The notes beneath the pieces were generated by a model, which ran no database searches, had not been told where the DNA came from, and saw only the letters and a program-made list of their open reading frames with translations. From the NCBI GenBank assembly GCA_031555055.1, contig JAVBUT010000008.1:3354-67353 (forward strand): a DNA stretch of 64,000 nucleotides. The letters are read 5' to 3'. Positions within the stretch are counted from its first letter, which is position 1; the number at the start of each line of letters is the position of its first letter. The translations under genes and the position numbers were made by a program. This DNA is from Alphaproteobacteria bacterium. Lineage in GTDB: Bacteria; Pseudomonadota; Alphaproteobacteria; Rs-D84. Positions 3,020 through 46,837 of the stretch are shown one piece after another.

Positions 3020-4213
3020 ATGAAAAAATTATTGTTTGTTATTTTTTGTTTTTTGTCCCTTGGTCCAATCCAATTGCGTGCCGATGACGTGGCCGCCGTA
3101 AAAAAAACGGAAAAGCCGCATTATAAATCCTGGTCCGAGATTTCTTTTATCGATCCCGTCGACGGGTATTTTGACATGAGCGAGTTTATAATCAACGCCC
3201 ATGGTTTTGTCCCGATCCCGGTAATAATTACCGAGCCCGCAGTCGGCGGATTCGGAGGCGGAGTTGCGCCGGTGTTCATAGACCCTAAACCGCCTGTTGA
3301 AAAAGATGGCAAGATGTATCCGCAAAGTCCGGACATAACTTTGCTGGGTGGGATTTATACGCTTAACAACACATGGGCTTTGGCGGCGGGTCGCATCGGC
3401 ACGATCCAGGAATACGGACTGAAATACAAAGTGCTGGGCGCATATGCCGACGCGAATCTTGATTTTTACACCCCGCCTGAAAGCATTGTCCCGGACCATA
3501 AAATGGAATTCAATATCCAGGCAGTCCCGGTTTATCTGTATCTGGCCAAGCAACTGCACGATCCGCGTTTTTCAGTCGGTATGGACTATGTGTATTCTTG
3601 GATTGATCTGAAACCGAAATTCGCGGACCCGAATATTCCGGATTCATGGGAACATGACTTTAAACAAAACATGTCGCTGATCGGCGGTGTGTTCGAATTC
3701 GATAATCGCGATAATACATTCACACCCAACAGCGGTATAAAGATCGCTGTAAATGCGCGTTTTTCCGACACTCTGTGGGGTGGCGGTTCTGACTTTCAGA
3801 AAACCGAAGAATCCATGTACTGGTATCTGCCGGTGACAGATTCCTGGATCACCGCATTGCGTTTGGAAACCCAGCAGATGTTCGGTGACGCACCGTTTTA
3901 TCTAAAGCCTTTCATTGATATGCGCGGTGTTCCAATGGCGCGATATCAGGGTGATTACACCGCGCTGGCCGAGATCGAGGAAAGATACGATTTCGGAAAA
4001 TCAAAGCGTTGGTCCGTTGTCGCGTTCGGCGGCCTGGGCAAGGCCTTTGACGAATTCAACCAGTTCGATGACGCGAAAACAGTGTACAGCTATGGCGCAG
4101 GATTCAGATATCTGCTGGTCAGGAAACTGGGGATACGCGTCGGCATTGACGTTGCGAACGGCCGCGATGGTCCGGCATGGTATATCGTATTCGGCAGCAA
4201 CTGGGCCAGATAG
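3020..4213 (+). CDS. Omp85/surface-antigen-family outer-membrane beta-barrel without POTRA domains
   Basis: Signal peptide MKKLLFVIFCFLSLGPIQLRA. C-terminal GAGFRYLLVRKLGIRVGIDVANGRDGPAWYIVFGSNW resembles the Bac_surface_Ag barrel end. Confidence 0.6.
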   Translation: MKKLLFVIFCFLSLGPIQLRADDVAAVKKTEKPHYKSWSEISFIDPVDGYFDMSEFIINAHGFVPIPVIITEPAVGGFGGGVAPVFIDPKPPVEKDGKMYPQSPDITLLGGIYTLNNTWALAAGRIGTIQEYGLKYKVLGAYADANLDFYTPPESIVPDHKMEFNIQAVPVYLYLAKQLHDPRFSVGMDYVYSWIDLKPKFADPNIPDSWEHDFKQNMSLIGGVFEFDNRDNTFTPNSGIKIAVNARFSDTLWGGGSDFQKTEESMYWYLPVTDSWITALRLETQQMFGDAPFYLKPFIDMRGVPMARYQGDYTALAEIEERYDFGKSKRWSVVAFGGLGKAFDEFNQFDDAKTVYSYGAGFRYLLVRKLGIRVGIDVANGRDGPAWYIVFGSNWAR

Positions 4214-4496: not shown

Positions 4497-4527
4497 AAAA
4501 CGGAACCACGCGTTCCGTTTTTTTGTT
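4497..4527 (+). terminator. Intrinsic terminator
   Basis: AAAACGGAAC-CACGC-GTTCCGTTTT followed by a T-run. Confidence 0.75.
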
Positions 4528-4583
4528 TGCCCGATTTTGGCATATATGATATAATCAGTCTAATAAGGAAGGGAATCCCTGTG

Positions 4584-6869
4584 ATGAAAAGATTTGTTGC
4601 CGTGCTTGCCGGATTGCTGATTATGCCCGCATATGCGGAAATTGCGCCAATCGGATACTATGACGAAATCGTCGACGAATACGCCGACGAAGTGGCTGGC
4701 GACGTCGAAATCGAAGAGATAGAGGAAATCCCAGAAACAACAATACAAAAACCGATCGTGCCGGTCGCGCCTGCGTCATCATCTGCGCGCGTAACATCGA
4801 ACCGCACTGCATCGCGCGCAATGCCGGCCGGTAACGCAACCATTGCACCCGGACGCGGAACAACTACACGCGCCGTGGCATCACGCACAACAACGACAAT
4901 CCCCACGCGCAGTGCAATGCCGCAAAACGTCGTTTCACGCGCAGCAACATCGCAAACCCAACAACACGCAACACGGCGCAGCACACCGGCCAGGGCCGCC
5001 ACCGCTGCACGCGCCGCGACAACTGCTGGCTCTATAACCCAGACCGACACAGTATATTCACCACTGTACACCGGCCGCGTCAGTTCGCGTGGCGGCAATG
5101 CGATCACCGCCGGAACACGCGGCGCAACAACGCGCATCGCAACATCCAGCAACATCAGCGCCACACCAACGGTTGATGTCGCGTCATTGGATGAAATGGC
5201 CAAACTGACCGATTATTGCAAGGCACAATACACCCAGTGCATGGATAACTTTTGCGACGTTCTGGATGACAACCAGGGCCGCTGCAGCTGTTCTGCCAAT
5301 TTAAAAAATTACACCAAGACCGAAGAAGCGCTGAAAAAGATCACGGAAGAGCTTCAGGAAGTCGCACAAAAAATCCAATACATCGGTCTGACCAAGGATG
5401 AACTGACGTCTATGTTCACCCAGACCGAAGCCGAAGCCGCAATGCAGGGAAAAACCGACACAACCCAGCTGCGCAGCGATTTGGAAAAAATCAAAAATAT
5501 GATCGTCGATGTAAAAAATCCGTCGGCAACGACAAGCGATTCCGCATTCAGCCTGGATTTATCCAGCCTGTTGGATTTCAGCTTCTCCGACAGCGGATTT
5601 GACCTGAATTCCTTTTTTGGCACCAGCGCCAACACCAGTATCAGTAACCAGCGCGGCGAACAATTGTTCAAGACCGCCGTCGCGCGCTGCAAATCAGCTG
5701 TACTGGACAGCTGTTATGCCCAAGGCGTCGACACATCCGTCATAACCAATAGCTATGATCTGGAAATCGATAAACAATGCATTGTGTACGAACGCGATCT
5801 GATAGAGGCGAATACGCAAATGAACCGCACAGTTCGAAACGCCAAATCCGTTCTGCAAAAGGCGCGCCTGATCGTTGCCCAGAACAAGAACCAATACGAT
5901 CTGCGCGGATGCGTGAATGCGCTGGACACATGCATGCAGGATGAATTCGTATGCGGGTCGGACTATGAAAACTGTCTGGACGCAACCGGAAAATACATTG
6001 TGAACGGCGAAATCATAGTGGGCAGTCTGCCAGGCGTTGTCGGTGGAAATCTGTCGACCCAGGCGACCGGCACCGGCCTGTATTCGTCCTGGAATTACGG
6101 CAGCACGAACGCATGGAACGACGGTGGCGATATCGGGTCATTCATATCGACTTATATTTCTTCGGCGGACACGACAAATATGGTCGGATTTATGCAAAGC
6201 AGAATCGGATACAATCTGAACAGCCGCAATTACGGCATGTGCATATCCGTCCTGAACAAGTGCCAGGATGTGACATACACCAACGGGGTGTACAACAAGA
6301 ACAACAAAGTGGTTGAAAACTATCTGCAACGCACATTGGTCCAGATAAAATCGCAACAGGATGAAATACTGGCCAAATATGCGGAAAGCTGTATCAGCGA
6401 CGTGTCGTCATGCTTGTCGACGAACGGCTGGTCGACCACCGCAGACAGCTTTGTCCAGAACACGGCCCAGAACGCTTGCCGCGCGATCATCAGAACATGC
6501 GCCAGTGTCATAAACGCGGGCGTTAACGTGAACAGTTCCGCAGAACAGGAAATCATCGACGCGGCCACAAACAACAGCCACATGGCGTCGTCCGCTGTTT
6601 GCACAACAATCAGCGCAGTCGGCACGTTAAGCACGGATATTGTGAACGGTTGCCCGGTTTCCGGTTACCGCTGTCTGAACGGGTATAAGACCACAGCAGA
6701 CGGTCGCTGTGTGACCGCGTGTCCTGCGAATTCGAATTATGACGCGTCCAAGATTGCGACCAGCACCGGGTCTGCCACGGTACGTGGTGTCGTTGAAACT
6801 GATCCGGCCGGCGGGTTCTGCACCTGTGACAAGGTTGGCGACGCATCATCCGGCACATGCCCATTGTAA
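4584..6869 (+). CDS. Large secreted protein: signal peptide, acidic stretch, Arg/Thr/Ala/Ser-rich low-complexity region, long Cys-rich C-terminal region
   Basis: RBS AAGGAAGG. MKRFVAVLAGLLIMPAYA signal peptide, EIEEIEEI, then repeated ATR/TSR-type low complexity, then YCKAQYTQCMDNFCDVLDDNQGRCSCS and more than 30 further Cys. No family recognised. Confidence 0.75.
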   Translation: MKRFVAVLAGLLIMPAYAEIAPIGYYDEIVDEYADEVAGDVEIEEIEEIPETTIQKPIVPVAPASSSARVTSNRTASRAMPAGNATIAPGRGTTTRAVASRTTTTIPTRSAMPQNVVSRAATSQTQQHATRRSTPARAATAARAATTAGSITQTDTVYSPLYTGRVSSRGGNAITAGTRGATTRIATSSNISATPTVDVASLDEMAKLTDYCKAQYTQCMDNFCDVLDDNQGRCSCSANLKNYTKTEEALKKITEELQEVAQKIQYIGLTKDELTSMFTQTEAEAAMQGKTDTTQLRSDLEKIKNMIVDVKNPSATTSDSAFSLDLSSLLDFSFSDSGFDLNSFFGTSANTSISNQRGEQLFKTAVARCKSAVLDSCYAQGVDTSVITNSYDLEIDKQCIVYERDLIEANTQMNRTVRNAKSVLQKARLIVAQNKNQYDLRGCVNALDTCMQDEFVCGSDYENCLDATGKYIVNGEIIVGSLPGVVGGNLSTQATGTGLYSSWNYGSTNAWNDGGDIGSFISTYISSADTTNMVGFMQSRIGYNLNSRNYGMCISVLNKCQDVTYTNGVYNKNNKVVENYLQRTLVQIKSQQDEILAKYAESCISDVSSCLSTNGWSTTADSFVQNTAQNACRAIIRTCASVINAGVNVNSSAEQEIIDAATNNSHMASSAVCTTISAVGTLSTDIVNGCPVSGYRCLNGYKTTADGRCVTACPANSNYDASKIATSTGSATVRGVVETDPAGGFCTCDKVGDASSGTCPL

Positions 6870-11543: not shown

Positions 11544-11622
11544 ATAACAATTAACATTTAACAAATAACAATTACAAAAGCAAGCCCCGGTAATTGTTAA
11601 ATGTTATTTGTTAATTGTTAAT
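11544..11622. repeat. Periodic hairpin, TAACAAT 7-mer family
   Basis: Arm ATAACAATTAACATTTAACAAATAACAATTAC and arm GTAATTGTTAAATGTTATTTGTTAATTGTTAAT. Fills the rpmF/plsX gap. Confidence 0.9.
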
Positions 11623-11771
11623 TATTTCGTTCCGCAAGCGGCGCAAACGTGATGCGGACGCTTTTTTTCACCGCATTTTTTACACAACGACGACGGCATG
11701 ATTGCGATCGCGTCGTGTGCGCGGCGCTGTGCGCTGCGTGCTTTGCTTGTTTTCTTTTTTGGTACTGCCAT
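11622..11771 (-). CDS. rpmF: 50S ribosomal protein L32 (49 aa, below the ORF-track cutoff)
   Basis: Hand translation gives MAVPKKKTSKARSAQRRAHDAIAIMPSSLCKKCGEKKRPHHVCAACGTK. Canonical position upstream of plsX. Confidence 0.88.
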   Translation of the reverse strand: MAVPKKKTSKARSAQRRAHDAIAIMPSSLCKKCGEKKRPHHVCAACGTK

Positions 11772-12300: not shown

Positions 12301-12363
12301 TCAGTGTCAGTGTCAGTGCCAGTGGAAGTGTCAGAAAGACATTAATCCACTGACACTGACACT
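12301..12363. repeat. Periodic hairpin, CAGTGY 6-mer family
   Basis: TCAGTGTCAGTGTCAGTGCCAGTGGAAGTGTCAG ... CACTGACACTGACACT. Lies between the HAD gene start and the rpoC stop. Confidence 0.85.
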
Positions 12364-16496: not shown

Positions 16497-16557
16497 ATCG
16501 TGATTCGTGAACCGTGATTCGTGACTCGAATTACGAATCACGAATTACGAATCACGA

Positions 16558-21274: not shown

Positions 21275-21340
21275 TAGTGACAGTGACAGTGACAGTGCCA
21301 GTATTTTGGGATTTCCCCACTGACACAGACACTGACACTA
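21275..21340. repeat. Periodic hairpin, GTGACA/CAGTGY 6-mer family
   Basis: TAGTGACAGTGACAGTGACAGTGCCAGT ... CCACTGACACAGACACTGACACTA. The right arm contains the rplJ TAG stop. Confidence 0.88.
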
Positions 21341-22047: not shown

Positions 22048-22108
22048 ACGTGACTCGTAATTCGTGATTCGTAATTCGAGTTACGATTCACGAGTCACGA
22101 ATTACGAC
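22048..22108. repeat. Periodic hairpin, GTGATTC 7-mer family
   Basis: ACGTGACTCGTAATTCGTGATTCGTAATTCG / AGTTACGATTCACGAGTCACGAATTACGAC. Abuts the rplA TAG stop. Confidence 0.9.
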
Positions 22109-23232: not shown

Positions 23233-23378
23233 TTATTTCTGATTTATGATTTCTGATTTCTGATTTGAATCAGACCATAATCATCATCAGGATTAGAGTT
23301 TGTGGTGCGATGTTGGCACATCTTCCACGCTTTTTTCGATCTATGAAATCAGAAATCCGAAATCATAAATCAGAAATC
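23233..23378. repeat. Periodic hairpin, TCTGATT 7-mer family, about 34-nt arms with about 70-nt loop
   Basis: TTATTTCTGATTTATGATTTCTGATTTCTGATTT ... GAAATCAGAAATCCGAAATCATAAATCAGAAATC. Fills the nusG/rplK gap. Confidence 0.88.
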
Positions 23379-24686: not shown

Positions 24687-25352
24687 ATGGCAGATAGCGT
24701 AGAACCACCGGTTTTGCTGTCCAGATTGATGACATTTGTATTCGCGGCCGCGGCCGTGGTTGTTGTCGTATTGATTGTGACTTTGGCGAAAATGTATCCG
24801 CTGAACCGGACCCAGGTATTTTTTTTGACGACACAACCGCGCAACGATCTGGAAATAAAACTGTCTTCTTTTTCGCCCGACACCCAGAATCTGGAAACCT
24901 ATAAACAAGCCTTTGTCAAAGAATACATCAAGGCACGCAACGAAATCATTCCGAACGCCGGTGTAATGCAGAACAAATGGAACACTTCTGGAACTGTTTA
25001 CATGTGGTCCACGCCAGAAATATACGACGCATTCGCGCAAACCGCGATGTGGACGGCGTACATGAATGACATACCTGATTTCGAATTCAGATGCCCTGTG
25101 GAATTCACAGGTGTCACGTTGCGCACTGAAAACACATACGCCGTAAAATTCAAGTATTTTTGCACAAATAGTAATGGACAAGACGGTGGCGAAAATTCTA
25201 CAATCACTGTGAAAAAGGACTATACGATTGTTGTTCGGTTGCAAATCGAAGATACGATCAAATGGACAGACCGATTACAAAACCCACTGGGGCTGCGGGT
25301 TTCCGGATACACGATCGAATCCGGCGACGGCGATCCACTTGATTTCAAGTAA
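24687..25352 (+). CDS. virB8: Type IV secretion system protein VirB8 family
   Basis: Short N-terminus, one TM segment (FVFAAAAVVVVVLIVTLA), periplasmic domain ending in the family hallmark NPLGLRVSGYTIES. RBS AGGAGAG. Confidence 0.8.
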   Translation: MADSVEPPVLLSRLMTFVFAAAAVVVVVLIVTLAKMYPLNRTQVFFLTTQPRNDLEIKLSSFSPDTQNLETYKQAFVKEYIKARNEIIPNAGVMQNKWNTSGTVYMWSTPEIYDAFAQTAMWTAYMNDIPDFEFRCPVEFTGVTLRTENTYAVKFKYFCTNSNGQDGGENSTITVKKDYTIVVRLQIEDTIKWTDRLQNPLGLRVSGYTIESGDGDPLDFK

Positions 25353-25357
25353 AACTT

Positions 25358-25508
25358 GGGATCAAAATGAAAAATGAAAAATGAAGAATGAAAAATTAGA
25401 TTCATTTATCATGACATTTTTCTCAAGACAAGGAAACAGGTAAACAAAGATGAACAAACTAATTAAATCATTTTTCATTCTTCATTTTTCATTTTTCATT
25501 TTGATCCC
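25358..25508. repeat. Perfect 39-bp inverted repeat (AATGAAA 7-mer family) with a 73-nt loop holding the virB9 RBS and ATG
   Basis: GGGATCAAAATGAAAAATGAAAAATGAAGAATGAAAAAT (25358-25396) is the exact reverse complement of 25470-25508. Confidence 0.95.
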
Positions 25509-26925
25509 ATTTGTATGCAATGCAAATGGCGTGCAAGAGGCTTGGGATAACCCGAACGCCAACATGGCCGCTGGTTCTGTAAAACCCGGATATGCCCAGC
25601 TGACCTGGTCGACGGGCGCGGTTCTGCCTATCAAATTGCGCAACGGAATGGTCACCATGGTAAATCTGCCCAATGGCGAAGAGATCGTCGACGGCGTTGT
25701 CGGAAACCAGGATTTGTTCGACTTTGATCCGCAAAAAAACGGGCGCAGCATGTTCATAACCCCCGCCGGCAGCAATCAGGGTGCAGACACTAATCTGATC
25801 GTAACCGGAAAATCCGGAAACAAATATATTTTCTATCTGCGCAGCGAGCCCGCCAACAGCTCTGAGATCACATATTCCCAGGTTGATATCGTACTGGACG
25901 GAAACTCTACACTGCCCGGCACAACCGGCTCTAATGCACAGTACGCCGGCATGAATTCCATATTTAAAAAGGCTTCCACTGGCGCCGGCAGCATGGTTGG
26001 CGTTGACGGCGAAGATTACGGCTGGATAAAATCGATGAAAATCGATCCGTCGGAATTCCGTTTCGATCTGGACATATTCGTTCCAAATCCGGACGACTAT
26101 GTAATCGCACCGGAACGCGTGTGGCGTGATAGAATCTTTACATACATTGACTTTGGCGACAAGGTTATCGCAATGACCCAGCGTCCTGTTGTATCGCTGT
26201 TGGTCGAAGGCGGCGAATCCCCGGTCGGATTCCGCACAGACGGCCAAGACGGCAGACTGTTGATAGTAGAAGCCGTGGGCGACATGGTTCTGCGCAGTGG
26301 ACAACGTATCGTATGCATCAAGAAACGTGAAAAGCCGTTCCTGATCGCGGATACCAACAGCGTTATGGCCCTGGCCGAAGCGAACGTCGCACGCAGCATG
26401 ATGTCCAGCCAATCGCTGAACAATGTCGCATACGGCGATATGCAGATGACACAGACACTGGGCGTGCAACAAATGGGCTATGGATATGCCGCACCGATGA
26501 TGATGCCGACATCCGGAACATACGGTGGATCAACGACGGCCGGCCTGGTGATGATACCGACAGAAAGAAACACAGCCGGCGCATATCTGCCACAAACAAA
26601 CATTCCGCTGATCAGCAGCAACCAAGCCGGTGTCGCGGTTGAATTAAAATCCGACACATCAGTCAAGGCATTGAATGATTACTGGACAGGATTATTGGCA
26701 AAGTTCAGCGGCGATGACGGCAAAGGCGTTCTGACGCCATACAAGAACAGCGTGTTCTTTGCGGTTGATGAACAAGGCGTCGGCGATCTGGGCGACGCTG
26801 CGACATCTGCGCGCCTGTACCGTCTGCGTATCGGTCCGATGTCTGATATCGACAGCGCACAAAAACTGTGCGACCAACTGTTAAAGTTCAGCGGCGCCAG
26901 CTGTCACGTGGTGAGAATACAATAA
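25450..26925 (+). CDS. virB9: VirB9/CagX/TrbG-family T4SS protein with C-terminal SPOR domain
   Basis: Signal peptide MNKLIKSFFILHFSFFILIPFVCNA. VTMVNLPNGEEIVDGVVGNQDLFDFD...TNLIVTGKSGNKYIFYLRS (VirB9 N-domain). RIFTYIDFGDKV...PVVSLLVEGGESPVGFR (C-domain). Tail LYRLRIGPMSDIDSAQKLCDQLLKFSGASCHVV (SPOR-like). Confidence 0.85.
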   Translation: MNKLIKSFFILHFSFFILIPFVCNANGVQEAWDNPNANMAAGSVKPGYAQLTWSTGAVLPIKLRNGMVTMVNLPNGEEIVDGVVGNQDLFDFDPQKNGRSMFITPAGSNQGADTNLIVTGKSGNKYIFYLRSEPANSSEITYSQVDIVLDGNSTLPGTTGSNAQYAGMNSIFKKASTGAGSMVGVDGEDYGWIKSMKIDPSEFRFDLDIFVPNPDDYVIAPERVWRDRIFTYIDFGDKVIAMTQRPVVSLLVEGGESPVGFRTDGQDGRLLIVEAVGDMVLRSGQRIVCIKKREKPFLIADTNSVMALAEANVARSMMSSQSLNNVAYGDMQMTQTLGVQQMGYGYAAPMMMPTSGTYGGSTTAGLVMIPTERNTAGAYLPQTNIPLISSNQAGVAVELKSDTSVKALNDYWTGLLAKFSGDDGKGVLTPYKNSVFFAVDEQGVGDLGDAATSARLYRLRIGPMSDIDSAQKLCDQLLKFSGASCHVVRIQ

Positions 26926-26984
26926 ACGTGAAACGTGAATCGTGAATCGTAATTCGAATCACGAGTCACGAATCACGAATTACG
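26926..26984. repeat. Periodic hairpin, GTGATTC/GTGAATC 7-mer family
   Basis: ACGTGAAACGTGAATCGTGAATCGTAATTCG / AATCACGAGTCACGAATCACGAATTACG. Fills the virB9/virB10 gap. Confidence 0.9.
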
Positions 26985-26989
26985 AAAAA

Positions 26990-29269
26990 ATGAAAACATT
27001 AAAACAATCTTTCACTGAATTAAAGCAAAGCACTCCGAAACATGTGCAGTGGTTATTGCTGGCGGCGGCGTTTGTCGTGGTCTTGATTCTGCTGACACTG
27101 TTGTTGGGCGGCGATAAAAAAGATTCTGACAAAATCACAACAGGCACTGTTCAGCCCGTGCTGACCGTTGATCCACGTGAACTGGATTGGTCTGCCGTTA
27201 CTGTTGGCGAAACCGTTACGCAACGCTTTGTCGTGTCGGCAAATACCGCGATCAAGGTTGACGATGTCCGTCTGTCCAAGGGTATCGTCGGTCTGGCCAA
27301 GCCCAGAACCACATGCACAAACATCGGTCAAATAAACGAAAAGCTGTCATGCACGGTCAGTTTGGAATATGCACCGACAGCGGCGATGGAAACCAGCGCG
27401 CTGTCCATGTTCATTGACTGGCGCGGCGCGACCCAGCCAGAAAAAATGAAAACCACCGAAACCGTTACGATCGCAATCGGCGCTGTGCTGCCAAAGCCTG
27501 TGGTAGCACCACAGCCCGTGATCGAACCAGCACCGAAATCCCAGATGCAACAGGAAATAGAGGAACTCGTCCAGCCTGCACCATTCTTTGAAGCCCCACA
27601 GGAGGTAAAAAAACCGACTGCGCCTGTCACTGAAAATATCCCCAGCGAGGCATGCTCGGACTTTGCGTTCCCTGGATACGGCACATCCGGTCAGCAAATC
27701 GGTTGGATCAAGCCCAGCCGCGGTACATATAACTTTCACCCGTTTTCTGACAAGAACTGCGCCAGTCCGACCGGCACTTATAATCCTGACAATGGCATAA
27801 TCACCGACAGCGCTGGCAAAAAAATTGGCACCGACGCCGAGCATATCGGCTTTGGCATGAACAGCACCGTCGCAATGCCGCTGTTGTCGAACGCACCGTC
27901 GCCACGCATTGAAAACAAGGCACGCCAGGTAACATCAGCTGAACTGGCACCGGCCGGAAAATCCGCACGCGTATTCTCTGCGCCGACACCGGAAACACTG
28001 CTTAAATCCACTGGTTCGACCGTGACATCCACCGCGCCATACGACCGCACATTTATTCTGCGCCAGTACAAGCCTATTCCCGCAACTATCGTGTCCGAAA
28101 TTCGCGCGGACCAGCGCTTGTTGAATGCGGATCATAAATTGCCGGTCATCGCAACAGTGGATCGCAATGTTTATTCCGACAATGGCCGTACGATTATCAT
28201 CCCAACCGGAACAACACTGTACGGATATGTTACCGGCGACGTGCCCGGACCATACAAGGCGATCGGCAGAATGGAAATCCGCTGGTATCAGTTCGTTCGT
28301 CCGGACGGTGTAGAATTTAACTTTGATGGCAACAATATGGACCCGTTCAGCGCCGATGCCCAGGGACGCGCCGGCGTGCCGGGACGTGGCTCTACGGACT
28401 ATATCGAACAGTTCGTCATGCCAATGCTGACCGCGATTGTGCCTGCGGCGGTAAATATGATTGCGCCAATCTCGGACAGCTTTATCAACCAGATCGATCT
28501 GGATAACAATACCGTCACACAAAGTGGCCAGGTTCGCTCTTCGGAATTGGCCAAGAACGAAATAATAACCGCATGGAACAAGGTCGCCCAGAAATTATTG
28601 GTCGATATGATGGACAATACCGTACCGCCGTTCTCTATTGCCGCTGGCACACGCATAACGGTATTCTCGCCAATGGATTTACAGGTAACATGTGGTGCGG
28701 AAACCGGCAAGAAATGCTCTGTTGCGCCATACGGCAAAGATGTTCGCGCAAATCCAGGCGCAGCGGTCACAATGGGTCAAAGCCCTGAAAACGCTGGCAG
28801 TATGGTCGGCCAGGTACGCTCGTTCGACATAATAAAATACTGCGACGGCAAAGGCGGTGTAAAGTCCGGTATGGAAAAAGAAATCTACGAAGCCGGTATG
28901 GATTACCGCACAGTTTTATTCGCGTGCCAGTCATCGCAATACGTCGCGATCAATACCGCCAAACAGGAAGCTGTGTTCCAAAACCAACAGCAGACCACAT
29001 ATACCAGCCCCACAACCGGCGAAAAGATGCAGCCAGGCACCAAAGAATATAATGAACAGGTCCTGGACTTGAAATACAACAAGGACGGCACTATACAGAA
29101 TCCGTTCAATCCACCGGCACCGCCCGCCACGCCGACCATCACATGTGAAGACGGTATGGCGCCTGACGCAAACGGATGCTGTGCCGGCGAAACATACACC
29201 GACATGGGCGAACAAGGGTTCAACTGTTGTCCTGCCGGCGGCGGCGACTGTTTCCCGCCGATAATATAG
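26990..29269 (+). CDS. virB10: VirB10/TrbI-family T4SS protein with extra Ig-like N-terminal module and Cys-rich C-terminal tail
   Basis: TM segment WLLLAAAFVVVLILLTLLLGG. Pro-rich LPKPVVAPQPVIEPAP. Core IPATIVSEIRADQ...PVIATVDRNVYSDNGRTIIIPTGTTLYGY...RMEIRWYQFVRPDGVEF...DAQGRAGVPG. Start taken at MKTLKQ downstream of the repeat. Confidence 0.85.
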   Translation: MKTLKQSFTELKQSTPKHVQWLLLAAAFVVVLILLTLLLGGDKKDSDKITTGTVQPVLTVDPRELDWSAVTVGETVTQRFVVSANTAIKVDDVRLSKGIVGLAKPRTTCTNIGQINEKLSCTVSLEYAPTAAMETSALSMFIDWRGATQPEKMKTTETVTIAIGAVLPKPVVAPQPVIEPAPKSQMQQEIEELVQPAPFFEAPQEVKKPTAPVTENIPSEACSDFAFPGYGTSGQQIGWIKPSRGTYNFHPFSDKNCASPTGTYNPDNGIITDSAGKKIGTDAEHIGFGMNSTVAMPLLSNAPSPRIENKARQVTSAELAPAGKSARVFSAPTPETLLKSTGSTVTSTAPYDRTFILRQYKPIPATIVSEIRADQRLLNADHKLPVIATVDRNVYSDNGRTIIIPTGTTLYGYVTGDVPGPYKAIGRMEIRWYQFVRPDGVEFNFDGNNMDPFSADAQGRAGVPGRGSTDYIEQFVMPMLTAIVPAAVNMIAPISDSFINQIDLDNNTVTQSGQVRSSELAKNEIITAWNKVAQKLLVDMMDNTVPPFSIAAGTRITVFSPMDLQVTCGAETGKKCSVAPYGKDVRANPGAAVTMGQSPENAGSMVGQVRSFDIIKYCDGKGGVKSGMEKEIYEAGMDYRTVLFACQSSQYVAINTAKQEAVFQNQQQTTYTSPTTGEKMQPGTKEYNEQVLDLKYNKDGTIQNPFNPPAPPATPTITCEDGMAPDANGCCAGETYTDMGEQGFNCCPAGGGDCFPPII

Positions 29270-29349
29270 GCCTGCGTCAAAACAGGTTTATCTTGTTGGC
29301 GGAACGTATTGATCAAACCAGCCAATTTTAAAATCTGAAATTATTATTG

Positions 29350-29374
29350 ATCGCCACTTTGGCGATTGTTTTTT
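29350..29374 (+). terminator. Intrinsic terminator ending the virB8-10 operon
   Basis: ATCGCC-ACTTT-GGCGAT followed by TGTTTTTT. Confidence 0.65.
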
Positions 29375-29536
29375 ACGATTCGATTCCTAAATACAAAAAA
29401 CGCTTAACGAATCGGAAATCCGAATCAGATTTCAACCTTTGGTTGTAACATTTTACATATTCGCATTGATTATCTATAACAGCTTGTCGGTCAAGCCTGG
29501 CAAGCGAACACCATAACAAGATGGAGAGAGTAAAAC

Positions 29537-29887
29537 ATGAACAACACACACAAACAAAAACAAATCCCGACCGCAGAAAAATTCCACAGCGCTGAACAGA
29601 TGTGGTTTTGGTTTTTGTATTCCAGACAAATTCGCAATGGCTTTGCGACGGGCAAACCTGTCCCAGGCAAACGCATATGCGAGCCCCTGGATATCGAGAC
29701 ATTAATAACCAGATTGTATTTGTCCGGGACACTGGATAACGATCATCTGAATGTCATGAAAGAATTCGGTGATCGTCGCCGTCCGCCGCACCAGCATATA
29801 TGGTCTGAAAACCACGCGGCAGCGATCTGGCGCGATGCAATGCAGATACTGGAATCGGCGGCGGTAAAACGCGGCTGGATAGAGTAG
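29537..29887 (+). CDS. Hypothetical protein (116 aa)
   Basis: RBS GGAGAGAG. AEQMWFWFLYSRQIRNG... No family recognised. Confidence 0.55.
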   Translation: MNNTHKQKQIPTAEKFHSAEQMWFWFLYSRQIRNGFATGKPVPGKRICEPLDIETLITRLYLSGTLDNDHLNVMKEFGDRRRPPHQHIWSENHAAAIWRDAMQILESAAVKRGWIE

Positions 29888-29892
29888 GACAA

Positions 29893-29990
29893 AGTCAATA
29901 GTCACTAGTCAATAGTCAATAGTCATTAGTAATTTAACTATTAAGCACCGCTAACGACTATTGACTATTGACTAGTGACTATTGACTAAG
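29893..29990. repeat. Periodic hairpin, GTCAATA 7-mer family
   Basis: AGTCAATAGTCACTAGTCAATAGTCAATAGTCATTAGT ... ACTATTGACTATTGACTAGTGACTATTGACTAAG. Confidence 0.9.
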
Positions 29991-29998
29991 GACTGTAA

Positions 29999-30377
29999 AA
30001 TGCTTATCGGATTTACACACAAAACTTCAAAGATTCTGCCGCGGATTTTATGCCGGCGGTTCCGGCATTGCGCGGTTGTTATAAATAAAAAACGAAAAAT
30101 GAAAAATGAAAAATGTTTTGTTATGTACCAAGTTGGCAAAGGATCAATAAAACAAATCCCATTGTCTGCGCGCGATTTGAAAATCCTAGAGCAACACGGC
30201 TGGGTGTTTATAGATTATACAACCTTGTCCCCGTATTGCCTTGGCCCGGCCCTGTCCCGCCATTATACATGCGTTGGATTCGCCAAACATATTTTAGAAA
30301 TCCGCGATCCTTTTATAATCACCCCGGACCAGTTGTATAAAAAATTAGCACATGGTGCACAGCGATTAGAATATTGA
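29999..30377 (+). CDS. Hypothetical protein (125 aa) with an in-frame AATGAAA repeat
   Basis: MLIGFTHKTSKILPRILCRRFRHCAVV... The KKRKMKNEKC segment is encoded by CGAAAAATGAAAAATGAAAAATG (30091-30115). Confidence 0.5.
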
Positions 30378-32574: not shown

Positions 32575-32635
32575 CTCGTGATTCGTGATTCGTGATTCGT
32601 GACTCGAATTACGAATCACAAATTACGGTTCACGA
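32575..32635. repeat. Periodic hairpin, GTGATTC 7-mer family
   Basis: CTCGTGATTCGTGATTCGTGATTCGTGACTCG / AATTACGAATCACAAATTACGGTTCACGA. The right arm contains the lspA TGA stop. Confidence 0.9.
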
Positions 32636-37277: not shown

Positions 37278-38399
37278 TTAATGAAACACATAGCTGTCAA
37301 TGCCGGTGGCGCTGGCATTATTTTTTAATTTTTGGGCCGATCCTTCGGACAATCCGTTTGCGCGCACGCGAAACATCCCATTGGGCGCCTGCTCTATCAT
37401 TGTGCTGACCCCCAGTGCATTTTTAACTTTATTCTGCTGGGCGGTGGCGGCCGATTTGGATGAAAATGCGCCGAACTGGACCCCGGAACCGCCGGATTGC
37501 ACCGTGACCGGCACGGGTGTCTTTTGCGGCGGTGGCGCAGAATAAGCTTCTTCATCAGTTTCGTCATCATAAGAATATTTCTGCAACGTCGGTGCGGCGC
37601 CAACCTTGACCAGTTCGAATCCCTTGTTCAGCATGCGGACAGACGCCGCCGCGCGAACATCCTTGGTGGACGCGCCCAGGACGACGGACATCAAGTGTTT
37701 GTTTCCGCGCCGCGCCGTCGCAACCAGCGAATATTTCGACTTGTTCGTGTATCCGGTTTTCATACCGTCACAGCCCGGATAAGTTTCCAGCAACCGATTT
37801 CCGTTATTGTATGTTTTGCCATTATACGTCCATGACTTGATTCCGAAATATTTCCAGTATTGCGGAAAATGTTTATACACTGCCATAGACAGCAACGCGA
37901 TATCGCGCGCCGTCGACAAATGATCATCGTCCGGCAGACCGGACGAATTCGCAAAGTTTGTCTTCGACAGTCCGATTTCGTTCGCGACATGCGTCATCAG
38001 CGACGCAAAGTTTCCTTCTTTGCCACCCTTTAAATTTTCGGCCAGCACGCGCGCAACGTCGTTCGCGCTGTGCACGGCAAGCGCCTTGATCGCGTCTTCG
38101 ACCTTGATCTTTGATCCCGCGGCCAGCCCCAGTTTAACCGGCGACGCATTCGCGGCGGATTGCGACACGATCAGATAATCATCCAAGTGCAAGCGTCCGT
38201 GTTCCAGCGCGTCGAACGTCAGATACAGCGTCATAATTTTGGTCAATGACGCCGGATAGTTCAGATCGCTGGCGTTTTCCTGGTACAGTACCTGGCCGGT
38301 ATCCATATCCGCGACCAAGGCCGCCCGATAATCCGCAGCATGCGCCACAGAAATGAAAAATGAAAAATGAAGAATGAAAAATGTAATTAGTTTTCTCAT
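37278..38399 (-). CDS. D-alanyl-D-alanine carboxypeptidase (S11, PBP5/6-like) with C-terminal SPOR domain
   Basis: SLTK, HSAN and KTGYT active-site motifs. Tail VQFGAFSSKSAATAQ...MFRVRANGLSEGSAQKL. Signal peptide MRKLITFFILHFSFFISVAHA. Confidence 0.88.
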   Translation of the reverse strand: MRKLITFFILHFSFFISVAHAADYRAALVADMDTGQVLYQENASDLNYPASLTKIMTLYLTFDALEHGRLHLDDYLIVSQSAANASPVKLGLAAGSKIKVEDAIKALAVHSANDVARVLAENLKGGKEGNFASLMTHVANEIGLSKTNFANSSGLPDDDHLSTARDIALLSMAVYKHFPQYWKYFGIKSWTYNGKTYNNGNRLLETYPGCDGMKTGYTNKSKYSLVATARRGNKHLMSVVLGASTKDVRAAASVRMLNKGFELVKVGAAPTLQKYSYDDETDEEAYSAPPPQKTPVPVTVQSGGSGVQFGAFSSKSAATAQQNKVKNALGVSTMIEQAPNGMFRVRANGLSEGSAQKLKNNASATGIDSYVFH

Positions 38400-38485
38400 G
38401 AACAAAATGATACAAAAAATTCGACACACGGGTCAATGGATAAAACAGTATTAATTTTTCATTCTTCATTTTTCATTTTTCATTT
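38351..38485. repeat. Perfect 32-bp inverted repeat (AATGAAA family) with a 71-nt loop holding the dac start codon
   Basis: AAATGAAAAATGAAAAATGAAGAATGAAAAAT (38351-38382) is the exact reverse complement of 38454-38485. Confidence 0.95.
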
Positions 38486-46754: not shown

Positions 46755-46837
46755 ATCGTGACTCGTGACTCGTGACTCGTGACTCGTAAAACGAAAATAT
46801 TATCTTTCGAATCACGATTCACGAATTACGAATCACG
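46755..46837. repeat. Periodic hairpin, GTGACTC/GTGATTC 7-mer family
   Basis: ATC(GTGACTC)x4GTAAAACG ... CGAATCACGATTCACGAATTACGAATCACG. The right arm contains the def TGA stop. Confidence 0.9.

Follow-up and report, generated by a model that had tools for sequence, protein, structure and literature searches.

The 64,000 nucleotides analysed here, referred to below as the window, correspond to positions 3,354 to 67,353 of the forward strand of contig JAVBUT010000008.1 (assembly GCA_031555055.1), which is assigned to an alphaproteobacterium of the GTDB order Rs-D84, and they include three consecutive type IV secretion system (T4SS)-type genes, virB8, virB9 and virB10. The third of these, located at 26990-29269, specifies a VirB10 protein of 759 residues in which the VirB10/TrbI beta-barrel is accompanied on both sides by further folded modules. 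What is new here is a VirB10 with clade-specific, putatively disulfide-bonded accessory domains, among which is a portable cysteine knot that had escaped annotation. The features of the gene are listed below; the identities given are mean pairwise values from an alignment of 119 full-length homologs, upon which the AlphaFold2 (AF2) model was also built, and pLDDT denotes the predicted local distance difference test score of that model.

26990..29269, +: virB10 gene, 759 codons and stop (open reading frame (ORF), Pfam TrbI, homologs, Foldseek)
26990..27037, +: cytoplasmic N-terminal tail, residues 1-16, Lys-rich and positive-inside (sequence; AF2 helix 2-14; 61% identity)
27038..27106, +: single transmembrane (TM) helix, residues 17-39 (AF2; hydropathy peak up to 3.07, hydrophobic over ~17-41; 72% identity)
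27152..27499, +: ASH/PapD-like beta-sandwich, residues 55-170, Cys pair C109 and C121 (pLDDT >90; Foldseek; 42% identity)
27500..27646, +: disordered Pro-rich linker 1, residues 171-219 (17.5% Pro; pLDDT <50; 40% identity; 38-95 residues across homologs)
27647..27859, +: mid beta module, residues 220-290, Cys pair C222 and C257 (six strands, pLDDT ~85; 74% identity; both Cys invariant)
27860..28018, +: disordered linker 2, residues 291-343 (pLDDT <50; 38% identity)
28019..28687, +: VirB10/TrbI beta-barrel core, residues 344-566, free of Cys (Pfam, PDB, Foldseek; 77-89% identity)
28394..28621, +: antenna, helices 469-502 and 517-544 with their connecting loop, the predicted outer-membrane pore element (AF2; 89% identity)
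28688..28822, +: C-terminal extension part 1, residues 567-611, loop C568-x7-C576 followed by a variable stretch (both Cys invariant; 42% identity; pLDDT <50 for 569-611)
28823..29089, +: C-terminal extension part 2, residues 612-700, helical module with Cys pair C618 and C646 (AF2; pLDDT 63-84; 51% identity)
29144..29266, +: terminal cysteine knot, residues 719-759, C-x10-CC-x14-CC-x6-C-FPPII with six invariant Cys (beta-hairpin, pLDDT 74-82; 85% identity)

The ORF runs uninterrupted from 26942 to 29269 on the forward strand, and the ATG at 26990, which yields the 759-residue product, is supported as the start codon because the homologs share an M-x-x-L-K-x-Q/S-F N-terminus with the Met at the equivalent place. 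The first-pass annotation, which had been made from the sequence alone, described an oversized VirB10 of this length, and the ORF, the Pfam and Foldseek matches and the virB8-virB9 context all bear this out; the C-terminal residues that it quoted are exact. Among 5.8 billion proteins searched there were more than 120 full-length relatives with 53-71% identity, ~100% coverage and lengths of 760-850 residues; these come from metagenome-assembled genomes (MAGs) of Alphaproteobacteria or 'Rickettsiales' and bear no better name than 'TrbI/VirB10 family protein' or 'hypothetical protein'. Comparison of the 119 aligned homologs established that they share the full architecture length. At least 287 GTDB species representatives carry this virB10 architecture; many of them are 'Candidatus Enterousia', with the guts of humans, ruminants, horses, birds and termites as sources, and two closed chromosomes, measuring 0.72 and 0.96 Mb, are among the carriers. 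Two sequences titled 'uncultured Muribaculaceae bacterium' (L004, OZ246409.1, a 716-kb 'chromosome', and L055, CAYJKO010000004.1) also carry this alphaproteobacterial virB10 with 52-61% identity, and the taxonomy under which these MAGs are filed seems to be mistaken. That the long ORF might be an artefact, in which a frameshift or misassembly joined VirB10 to a neighbouring gene, had been named from the outset as something that would undo the observation. Nothing was found in favour of this explanation, to which we give a negligible probability: besides the full-length homologs and the GTDB carriers, the neighbourhoods are shared with relatives, the modules are conserved with invariant Cys, and a single DNA contig of the source metagenome (invertebrate gut) spans 26142-29500, junction included, at even depth and with zero differences. 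On these grounds the frameshift or fusion alternative is refuted.

The barrel core was matched by Pfam TrbI (PF03743) at residues 359-560 with 69.3 bits (cutoff 35), in agreement with the previously proposed extent of about residues 360-560, and it was the only part of VirB10 to clear a Pfam cutoff. The NCBIfam equivalog-domain model NF038091 (T4SS_VirB10) scored 64.5 bits, which is below its cutoff of 220 bits, and PDB sequence matches, to CagY, ComB10 and TrwE, span only residues 351-494, the rest of the protein being unmatched. The AF2 model resolved the beta domain behind the TM helix, the mid module, the antenna-bearing barrel and a hairpin in the tail, and a Foldseek search of the PDB with this model aligned the barrel with those of CagY, TrwE, Xanthomonas VirB10, TraF, ComB10, F TraB and DotG, at E-values from 7.5e-11 (CagY) to 3.5e-5 (DotG); the matches to TraF (3jqo), TrwE (7o3j), Xanthomonas VirB10 (6gyb) and CagY (6x6k) identify it as a barrel of the antenna-bearing type. 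The antenna is the most conserved part of the protein. A bitopic VirB10 topology is predicted from the Lys-rich residues 1-16, the hydrophobic segment 17-41, which is the one TM segment that had been noted before, and the Pro content of residues 171-219, and the genes for VirB8 and VirB9 lie directly upstream. Outside the antenna region the protein contains no other hydrophobic segment. The identity of the barrel did not exceed 30% to any of 802 plasmid VirB10/TrbI genes, and the protein is, on sequence criteria, a divergent branch of VirB10 that is no equivalog of the characterised members. As neither near-identical nor similar DNA was found among the PLSDB plasmids, a plasmid-borne conjugation locus was rejected.

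In common with canonical VirB10 proteins, namely A. tumefaciens VirB10, pKM101 TraF, R388 TrwE and X. citri VirB10, the protein is predicted to be N-in and bitopic, with a Pro-containing periplasmic linker and a C-terminal barrel that bears a two-helix antenna, its gene follows virB8 and virB9, and Foldseek E-values against the solved C-terminal domains of these proteins are about 1e-10 to 2e-8. It differs from them in being approximately twice as large, in having a core that is at most 30% identical, in carrying folded additions both before and after the barrel, and in the absence of virB11 and virD4 downstream. In an Agrobacterium plasmid, virB11 and virD4 come after virB10, which stops 24 residues beyond its final barrel strand, whereas here a Cys-rich tail of 194 residues follows the barrel; an Erythrobacter homolog does have a tail of ~77 residues after the barrel, of low complexity and free of Cys, and neither this tail nor that of Agrobacterium resembles the present one. 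The first-pass statement that the last ~190 residues lack a counterpart in canonical VirB10 was borne out by these comparisons. A review describes the VirB10 C-terminal domain as well conserved, with no post-barrel extension (PMC6536674). Helicobacter pylori CagY and Legionella DotG, which gave the two ends of the Foldseek range above, likewise contain a VirB10-type barrel inside a far larger protein. The barrel of CagY is situated at the C-terminal end (PDB sequence match to residues 1686-1811 of 1927), however, while in the protein studied here a folded extension comes after it, and the additions of CagY and DotG are what we take to be N-terminal repeat regions, as opposed to small, putatively disulfide-bonded domains that are not repeats. 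An earlier case of core subunits whose C-terminal extensions are particular to a lineage and adorn the core complex is the Xanthomonas X-T4SS, in which VirB7 has a C-terminal N0 domain and VirB8 an AQGP tail (PMC6536674), although these extensions belong to other subunits and have no sequence or fold kinship to the tail described here.

The tail comprises the last 194 residues (566-759), for which neither Pfam nor NCBIfam gave a match even at E<=10 and no PDB sequence match was obtained. Within it only the last ~40 residues are conserved to an extent comparable to the barrel (85% identity versus 42-51% elsewhere in the tail). AF2 placed the helices of the helical module at residues 629-634, 639-648, 654-668 and 685-690, and a model of the tail on its own reached a pLDDT of ~87 for residues ~611-645; this tail-only model retrieved no significant PDB match by Foldseek (best E 2.1). 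The knot shares with granulin and knottin-type toxins the CC doublets, a beta-hairpin and three putative disulfides within ~40 residues, which is a resemblance only: kinship to these families was rejected at Foldseek E-values of 2.1-3.4 (granulin A 3.4), probability <0.1, and no Pfam match at E<=10. The first-pass annotation had counted 12 Cys in the tail; the actual number is 10, all of which are invariant, while the whole protein contains 14 (residues 109, 121, 222, 257, 568, 576, 618, 646, 719, 730, 731, 746, 747 and 754). These lie exclusively in the add-on modules, in the proportion 2, 2 and 10, the TM helix, the linkers and the barrel being devoid of Cys; 13 of the 14 are invariant across the 119 sequences and C109 is nearly so. 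The homologs contain 14 Cys in 98 cases, 16 in 19 and 15 in just 2, so that the total is even in 117 of 119, and it would appear from these totals that Cys were mostly gained in pairs, a pattern that fits disulfide-bonded extracytoplasmic domains.

A profile search with the tail against 1.84 billion representative proteins gave 248 matches, from which it emerged that the complete tail is confined to this VirB10 family and that the last ~40 residues are found elsewhere too. Bitopic proteins of ~700-850 residues have the knot as their very last part, and consist of a cytoplasmic coiled-coil domain, one TM helix, a long acidic and Pro-rich linker and the knot; signal-peptide proteins of ~200-330 residues from the same clade contain it as two to three tandem copies. 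These knots are 67-82% identical to that of VirB10 and have the identical spacing C-x10-CC-x14-CC-x6-C; their genes adjoin gcrA, or an FtsX/MacB ATP-binding cassette (ABC) transporter gene together with ftsQ, with no T4SS context, and those products that carry a name are each a 'hypothetical protein' of Alphaproteobacteria or Proteobacteria MAGs. One example of the bitopic family (L083 8001-10160, P0158) adjoins gcrA and has a conserved cytoplasmic N-domain (YNISGNVFRAFYD...) followed by the coiled coil, while an example of the second type (L084 5584-6336, P0150), which adjoins the FtsX/MacB ABC transporter, has a signal peptide, a helical hairpin bridged by Cys, and two to three tandem knots. 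No copy of the knot other than that of VirB10 was found in the window or in 82 fetched loci. Two divergent VirB10 proteins (P0142 and P0187) retain the knot and the mid module and have lost the C618/C646 pair. In segment scans that included the knot-partner proteins (E<=1-10) neither Pfam nor NCBIfam offered a model for the knot, which is a portable module without a family model, present on unrelated envelope proteins of the clade.

That both VirB10 and the bitopic proteins end in the knot, their terminus being a near-invariant CFPP[IL]x, and that the knot is very strongly conserved on unrelated carriers, would also be expected of a C-terminal sorting or processing signal belonging to a clade-specific export or attachment pathway for which VirB10 is one substrate. 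The internal tandem copies in the signal-peptide proteins argue that the knot is a domain and not a tag for sorting at the terminus, NCBIfam sorting-domain models give no match, and a folded domain with three disulfides is unlike the known C-terminal sorting tags; a role as sorting signal is accordingly judged very improbable.

Between the TM helix and the barrel, the module that had been likened to ASH/DUF1573-type beta-sandwiches proved to be correctly characterised at the level of the fold. Foldseek returned ASH, PapD-like and MSP matches over a region of ~110-135 residues, namely CEP192 PapD-like domain 7 (E 3e-5, TMt 0.56), HYDIN, MSP and OCRL-ASH (structures 6fvi, 2ys4, 2e6j, 1m1s and 3qbt; E 3e-5 to 7e-4, TMt 0.50-0.59, probability 1.00), and we infer that these belong to residues 55-170 because of the size of the domain and the overlapping sub-threshold hidden Markov model (HMM) matches. 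The latter are Cep192_D4 (PF22073; E 4.8e-4, 20.7 bits, under the 35.5 cutoff) and choice-of-anchor D (choice_anch_D, NF012200; E 1.9e-5, 25.2 bits, under the cutoff of 45). Residues 55-170 are thus predicted to be ASH/PapD-like in fold, a likeness to CEP192, HYDIN, OCRL and the bacterial 'choice-of-anchor D' proteins that is one of fold class, all HMM scores being below the curated cutoffs. The module evolves fast, as seen from its low mean pairwise identity, and we know of no report of an ASH-type fold directly behind the TM helix of a VirB10. The Pro-rich linker that was said to follow it is real insofar as residues 171-219 are disordered and Pro-rich; the region of residues ~171-350 that had been assigned to it also holds, however, the conserved two-Cys mid beta module and a second linker. 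The mid module (CSDFAFPGY...GWIKP...FHPFSD..C...YNPDNGII...KKIGTDAEHIG) has no Pfam or NCBIfam match in segment-wise scans (E<=1-10). None of the extra segments is matched by a known TrbI subfamily model, and the four extras, namely the ASH-like immunoglobulin-type domain, the mid beta module, the helical module and the six-Cys knot, were shown to be found only in this clade.

In T4SS the outer-membrane channel is formed by the two-helix bundles of VirB10, with the inter-helix loop pointing outward (PMC3297438, PMC6536674), and from a supposedly C-terminal position of this antenna it had been reasoned that a long tail could be surface-exposed. In the AF2 model the antenna helices are instead an insertion within the barrel, and the chain re-enters barrel strands at residues 555-565 ahead of the tail; this puts the start of the tail on the periplasmic face of the outer membrane, and sequence analysis revealed no further hydrophobic or amphipathic membrane-spanning segment within it. 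In addition, the proteins with a cytoplasmic coiled coil that end in the same knot are anchored in the inner membrane, and the knot is therefore periplasmic there unless exported by something else. A periplasmic, outer-membrane-proximal tail is favoured because of these three observations, so that exposure at the surface becomes the less likely reading, and docking or bracing in the periplasm is more likely than surface display.

We hold with moderate confidence that this is the VirB10 of a chromosomal, vertically inherited, T4S-type envelope machine, whose extra modules would be disulfide-stabilised periplasmic domains and whose knot would be a docking domain. The C-terminal extension would exit the barrel just under the outer membrane, and the knot, which the clade reuses on other envelope proteins, probably binds a shared envelope partner such as an outer-membrane-proximal protein or a wall component. 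Core complexes of solved minimized systems contain about 14 copies of VirB10. In a complex of this kind the tails would serve as a brace or anchor at the periphery, and together with a VirB9 that is itself tipped by a SPOR-like domain they could do the job performed elsewhere by VirB7-type lipoproteins and their add-on domains. The brace or anchor would fit with the borderline SPOR extension of VirB9 and with the lack of an obvious virB7.

A number of points weigh against this interpretation. The AF2 models of the tail are of moderate confidence only (pLDDT ~68), and the tail might pack at the periphery, in the chamber or elsewhere. Substitution for VirB7 is suggested solely by the lack of a lipoprotein ORF adjoining virB8, and virB7 could be situated elsewhere in the genome. 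None of VirB4, VirB11, VirD4, VirB6, VirB2 or the Dsb enzymes is encoded in the 64-kb window, and compact, disulfide-rich small domains are also typical of extracellular proteins.

The last point is pertinent to the possibility that the tail, or at least the knot, stands exposed around the pore at the cell surface as an adhesin or as a sensor of contact with a partner cell. Compact mini-domains with multiple disulfides would suit the protease-rich gut lumen, secreted signal-peptide proteins do carry tandem knots, the conservation of the knot equals that of the pore element, and dependence of the lineage on contact with other cells has been suggested (PMC12306168). Surface display is nevertheless unlikely in our estimation, as the tail starts only once the chain is back in the periplasmic barrel and has no additional membrane-spanning segment, the same knot terminates inner-membrane-anchored proteins, and 14 tails of ~21 kDa would not plausibly be threaded through a pore of 32-45 Å (pore sizes from PMC3297438 and PMC6536674). 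Alternatively, the tail could fold back into the chamber of the core complex and act as a plug or gate, to be moved aside upon activation; the flexible stretch of ~45 residues (567-611) that tethers the folded parts to the barrel would allow for this, and control over the opening of the outer-membrane pore is a known property of VirB10 (PMC3297438). Fourteen such copies (~290 kDa) would, by an estimate not derived from a model, mostly fill a canonical chamber, however, and a plug leaves the same knot on unrelated envelope proteins outside T4SS unexplained, which renders this proposal rather improbable, more so than surface display. A periplasmic docking or bracing function for the tail is thus the interpretation that we prefer.

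The surroundings of virB10 were examined for further components, the features of relevance being:

24687..25352, +: virB8, first gene of the triad (Pfam VirB8 E 4.7e-14; syntenic in L001, L002, L087 and L088)
25450..26925, +: virB9, 491 residues, with a C-terminal extension of ~200 residues ending in a SPOR-like domain (CagX at residues 50-292; SPOR scores)
29348..29368, +: terminator-like hairpin and T-tract, ~80 nt past the virB10 stop (consensus match only; regional count not above shuffles)

Canonical VirB9 is about 290 residues long, whereas the lengths of the present protein and of those in the relatives L001, L002, L087 and L088 are conserved at ~491-510 residues. Beyond CagX it contains a stretch of ~160 residues rich in Met, Gly, Ala and Thr and then the C-terminal SPOR-like domain, for which SPOR (PF05036) scored 20.7 bits with the whole protein and 22.5 bits with the isolated segment (cutoff 21), only the second half of the model being matched. 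A VirB9 that binds peptidoglycan would be unusual. Elsewhere in the window a D-Ala-D-Ala carboxypeptidase (Peptidase_S11; 37278-38429, reverse strand) likewise ends in SPOR, and this genome may be in the habit of tagging its envelope proteins with SPOR.

The triad is embedded in chromosomal housekeeping genes, with tRNA-Trp, secE, nusG, rplKAJL and rpoBC on one side and yidC, lspA, a gene of the Na+/H+ exchanger family (KefB-like), ksgA, recR, dacA, pyk, pyrG and comEC on the other. The same layout, in which rpoB...nusG-secE is followed by virB8-virB9-virB10, one or two small ORFs and, where the contig extends so far, yidC-lspA, was observed in L001, L002 and L087, the genomes sharing it being an NCBI MAG, an 885-kb contig from the Hadza human gut and a divergent 'Rickettsiales' MAG; in L088, the most divergent member, the triad is kept and the flanks differ. 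VirB2-VirB6, VirB11 and VirD4 were not found in the window, nor within +/-10 kb of the triad in the relatives, and a virB7-like lipoprotein ORF was not found upstream of virB8, where tRNA-Trp and secE are located.

The terminator-like hairpin is the probable end of the virB8-virB10 unit. It separates virB10 from two small downstream ORFs (29537-29887, 116 residues, and 29982-30377, 131 residues) that are syntenic in L001 and L002 and are matched by neither Pfam nor NCBIfam. In the study that yielded the source metagenome, metatranscriptome contigs were also obtained; within 24879-27066 these cover, without differences, parts of virB8 and virB9, the spacer and ~77 nt at the start of virB10, there being no RNA contig over the rest of virB10. 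The contigs that cross the virB9-virB10 spacer hint at co-transcription, which is suggestive only, since contigs of this kind may contain DNA and their depth is a poor guide to expression.

Gene boundaries in the window are frequently occupied by short tandem arrays of heptamers (in some cases hexamers) in ~4-5 copies, whose inverted pairs would form hairpins and whose repeat unit differs from site to site; examples are located at 11545-11623, 12301-12363, 16498-16557, 21276-21339, 22055-22100, 23235-23378, 25364-25502, 26924-26986, 29893-29988, 32576-32627, 38351-38485 and 46756-46837. The array in the virB9-virB10 spacer has a folding energy of -25.6 kcal/mol (z -4.6); relatives, in which the spacers are ~20 nt, lack it. 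CGTGAWT-type 14-mers were observed 21 times as compared to an expected 1.1, and the arms at 25364-25502 match many other contigs of the source metagenome, as is apparent from spikes in depth. A further ORF of the window (4527-6869, forward strand) encodes 780 residues, a large protein for a very small genome, and has no credible Pfam match, only weak matches of the coiled-coil type being obtained.

The bacteria that carry this VirB10 are uncultured gut Alphaproteobacteria of Rs-D84 and 'Ca. Enterousia' with genomes of 0.7-1 Mb. Members of Rs-D84 have reduced genomes that lack the tricarboxylic acid cycle and respiration, and an obligate symbiotic or parasitic lifestyle, in which metabolites are taken from other cells, has been proposed for them (PMC12306168). 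No description of a T4SS in Rs-D84, RF32 or Enterousia was found in the literature searched. It is conceivable, if doubtful, that the decorated VirB8/VirB9/VirB10 triad is the trans-envelope core of an apparatus for attachment to partner cells and uptake of metabolites, with a crown of knots that mediates contact, either exposed or by engaging a clade-specific layer of the outer envelope; the triad might then use a non-canonical set of partners, as no ATPase genes are linked to it.

No T4SS subunit other than VirB10 bridges both membranes; VirB10 also makes up the outer-membrane pore, and its C-terminal domain is usually treated as invariant (PMC6536674). Here a whole order of bacteria, common in the guts of humans, livestock, birds and insects, has a VirB10 whose barrel is flanked on either side by folded domains, together with a VirB9 that is putatively of the peptidoglycan-binding type, and the retention of these genes in genomes of just 0.7-1 Mb argues that the machine is important to these bacteria. 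The six-Cys knot of ~40 residues represents an unannotated portable envelope domain that merits a family model of its own, and the triad is a concrete candidate for the means by which Rs-D84 obtains its metabolites (PMC12306168).

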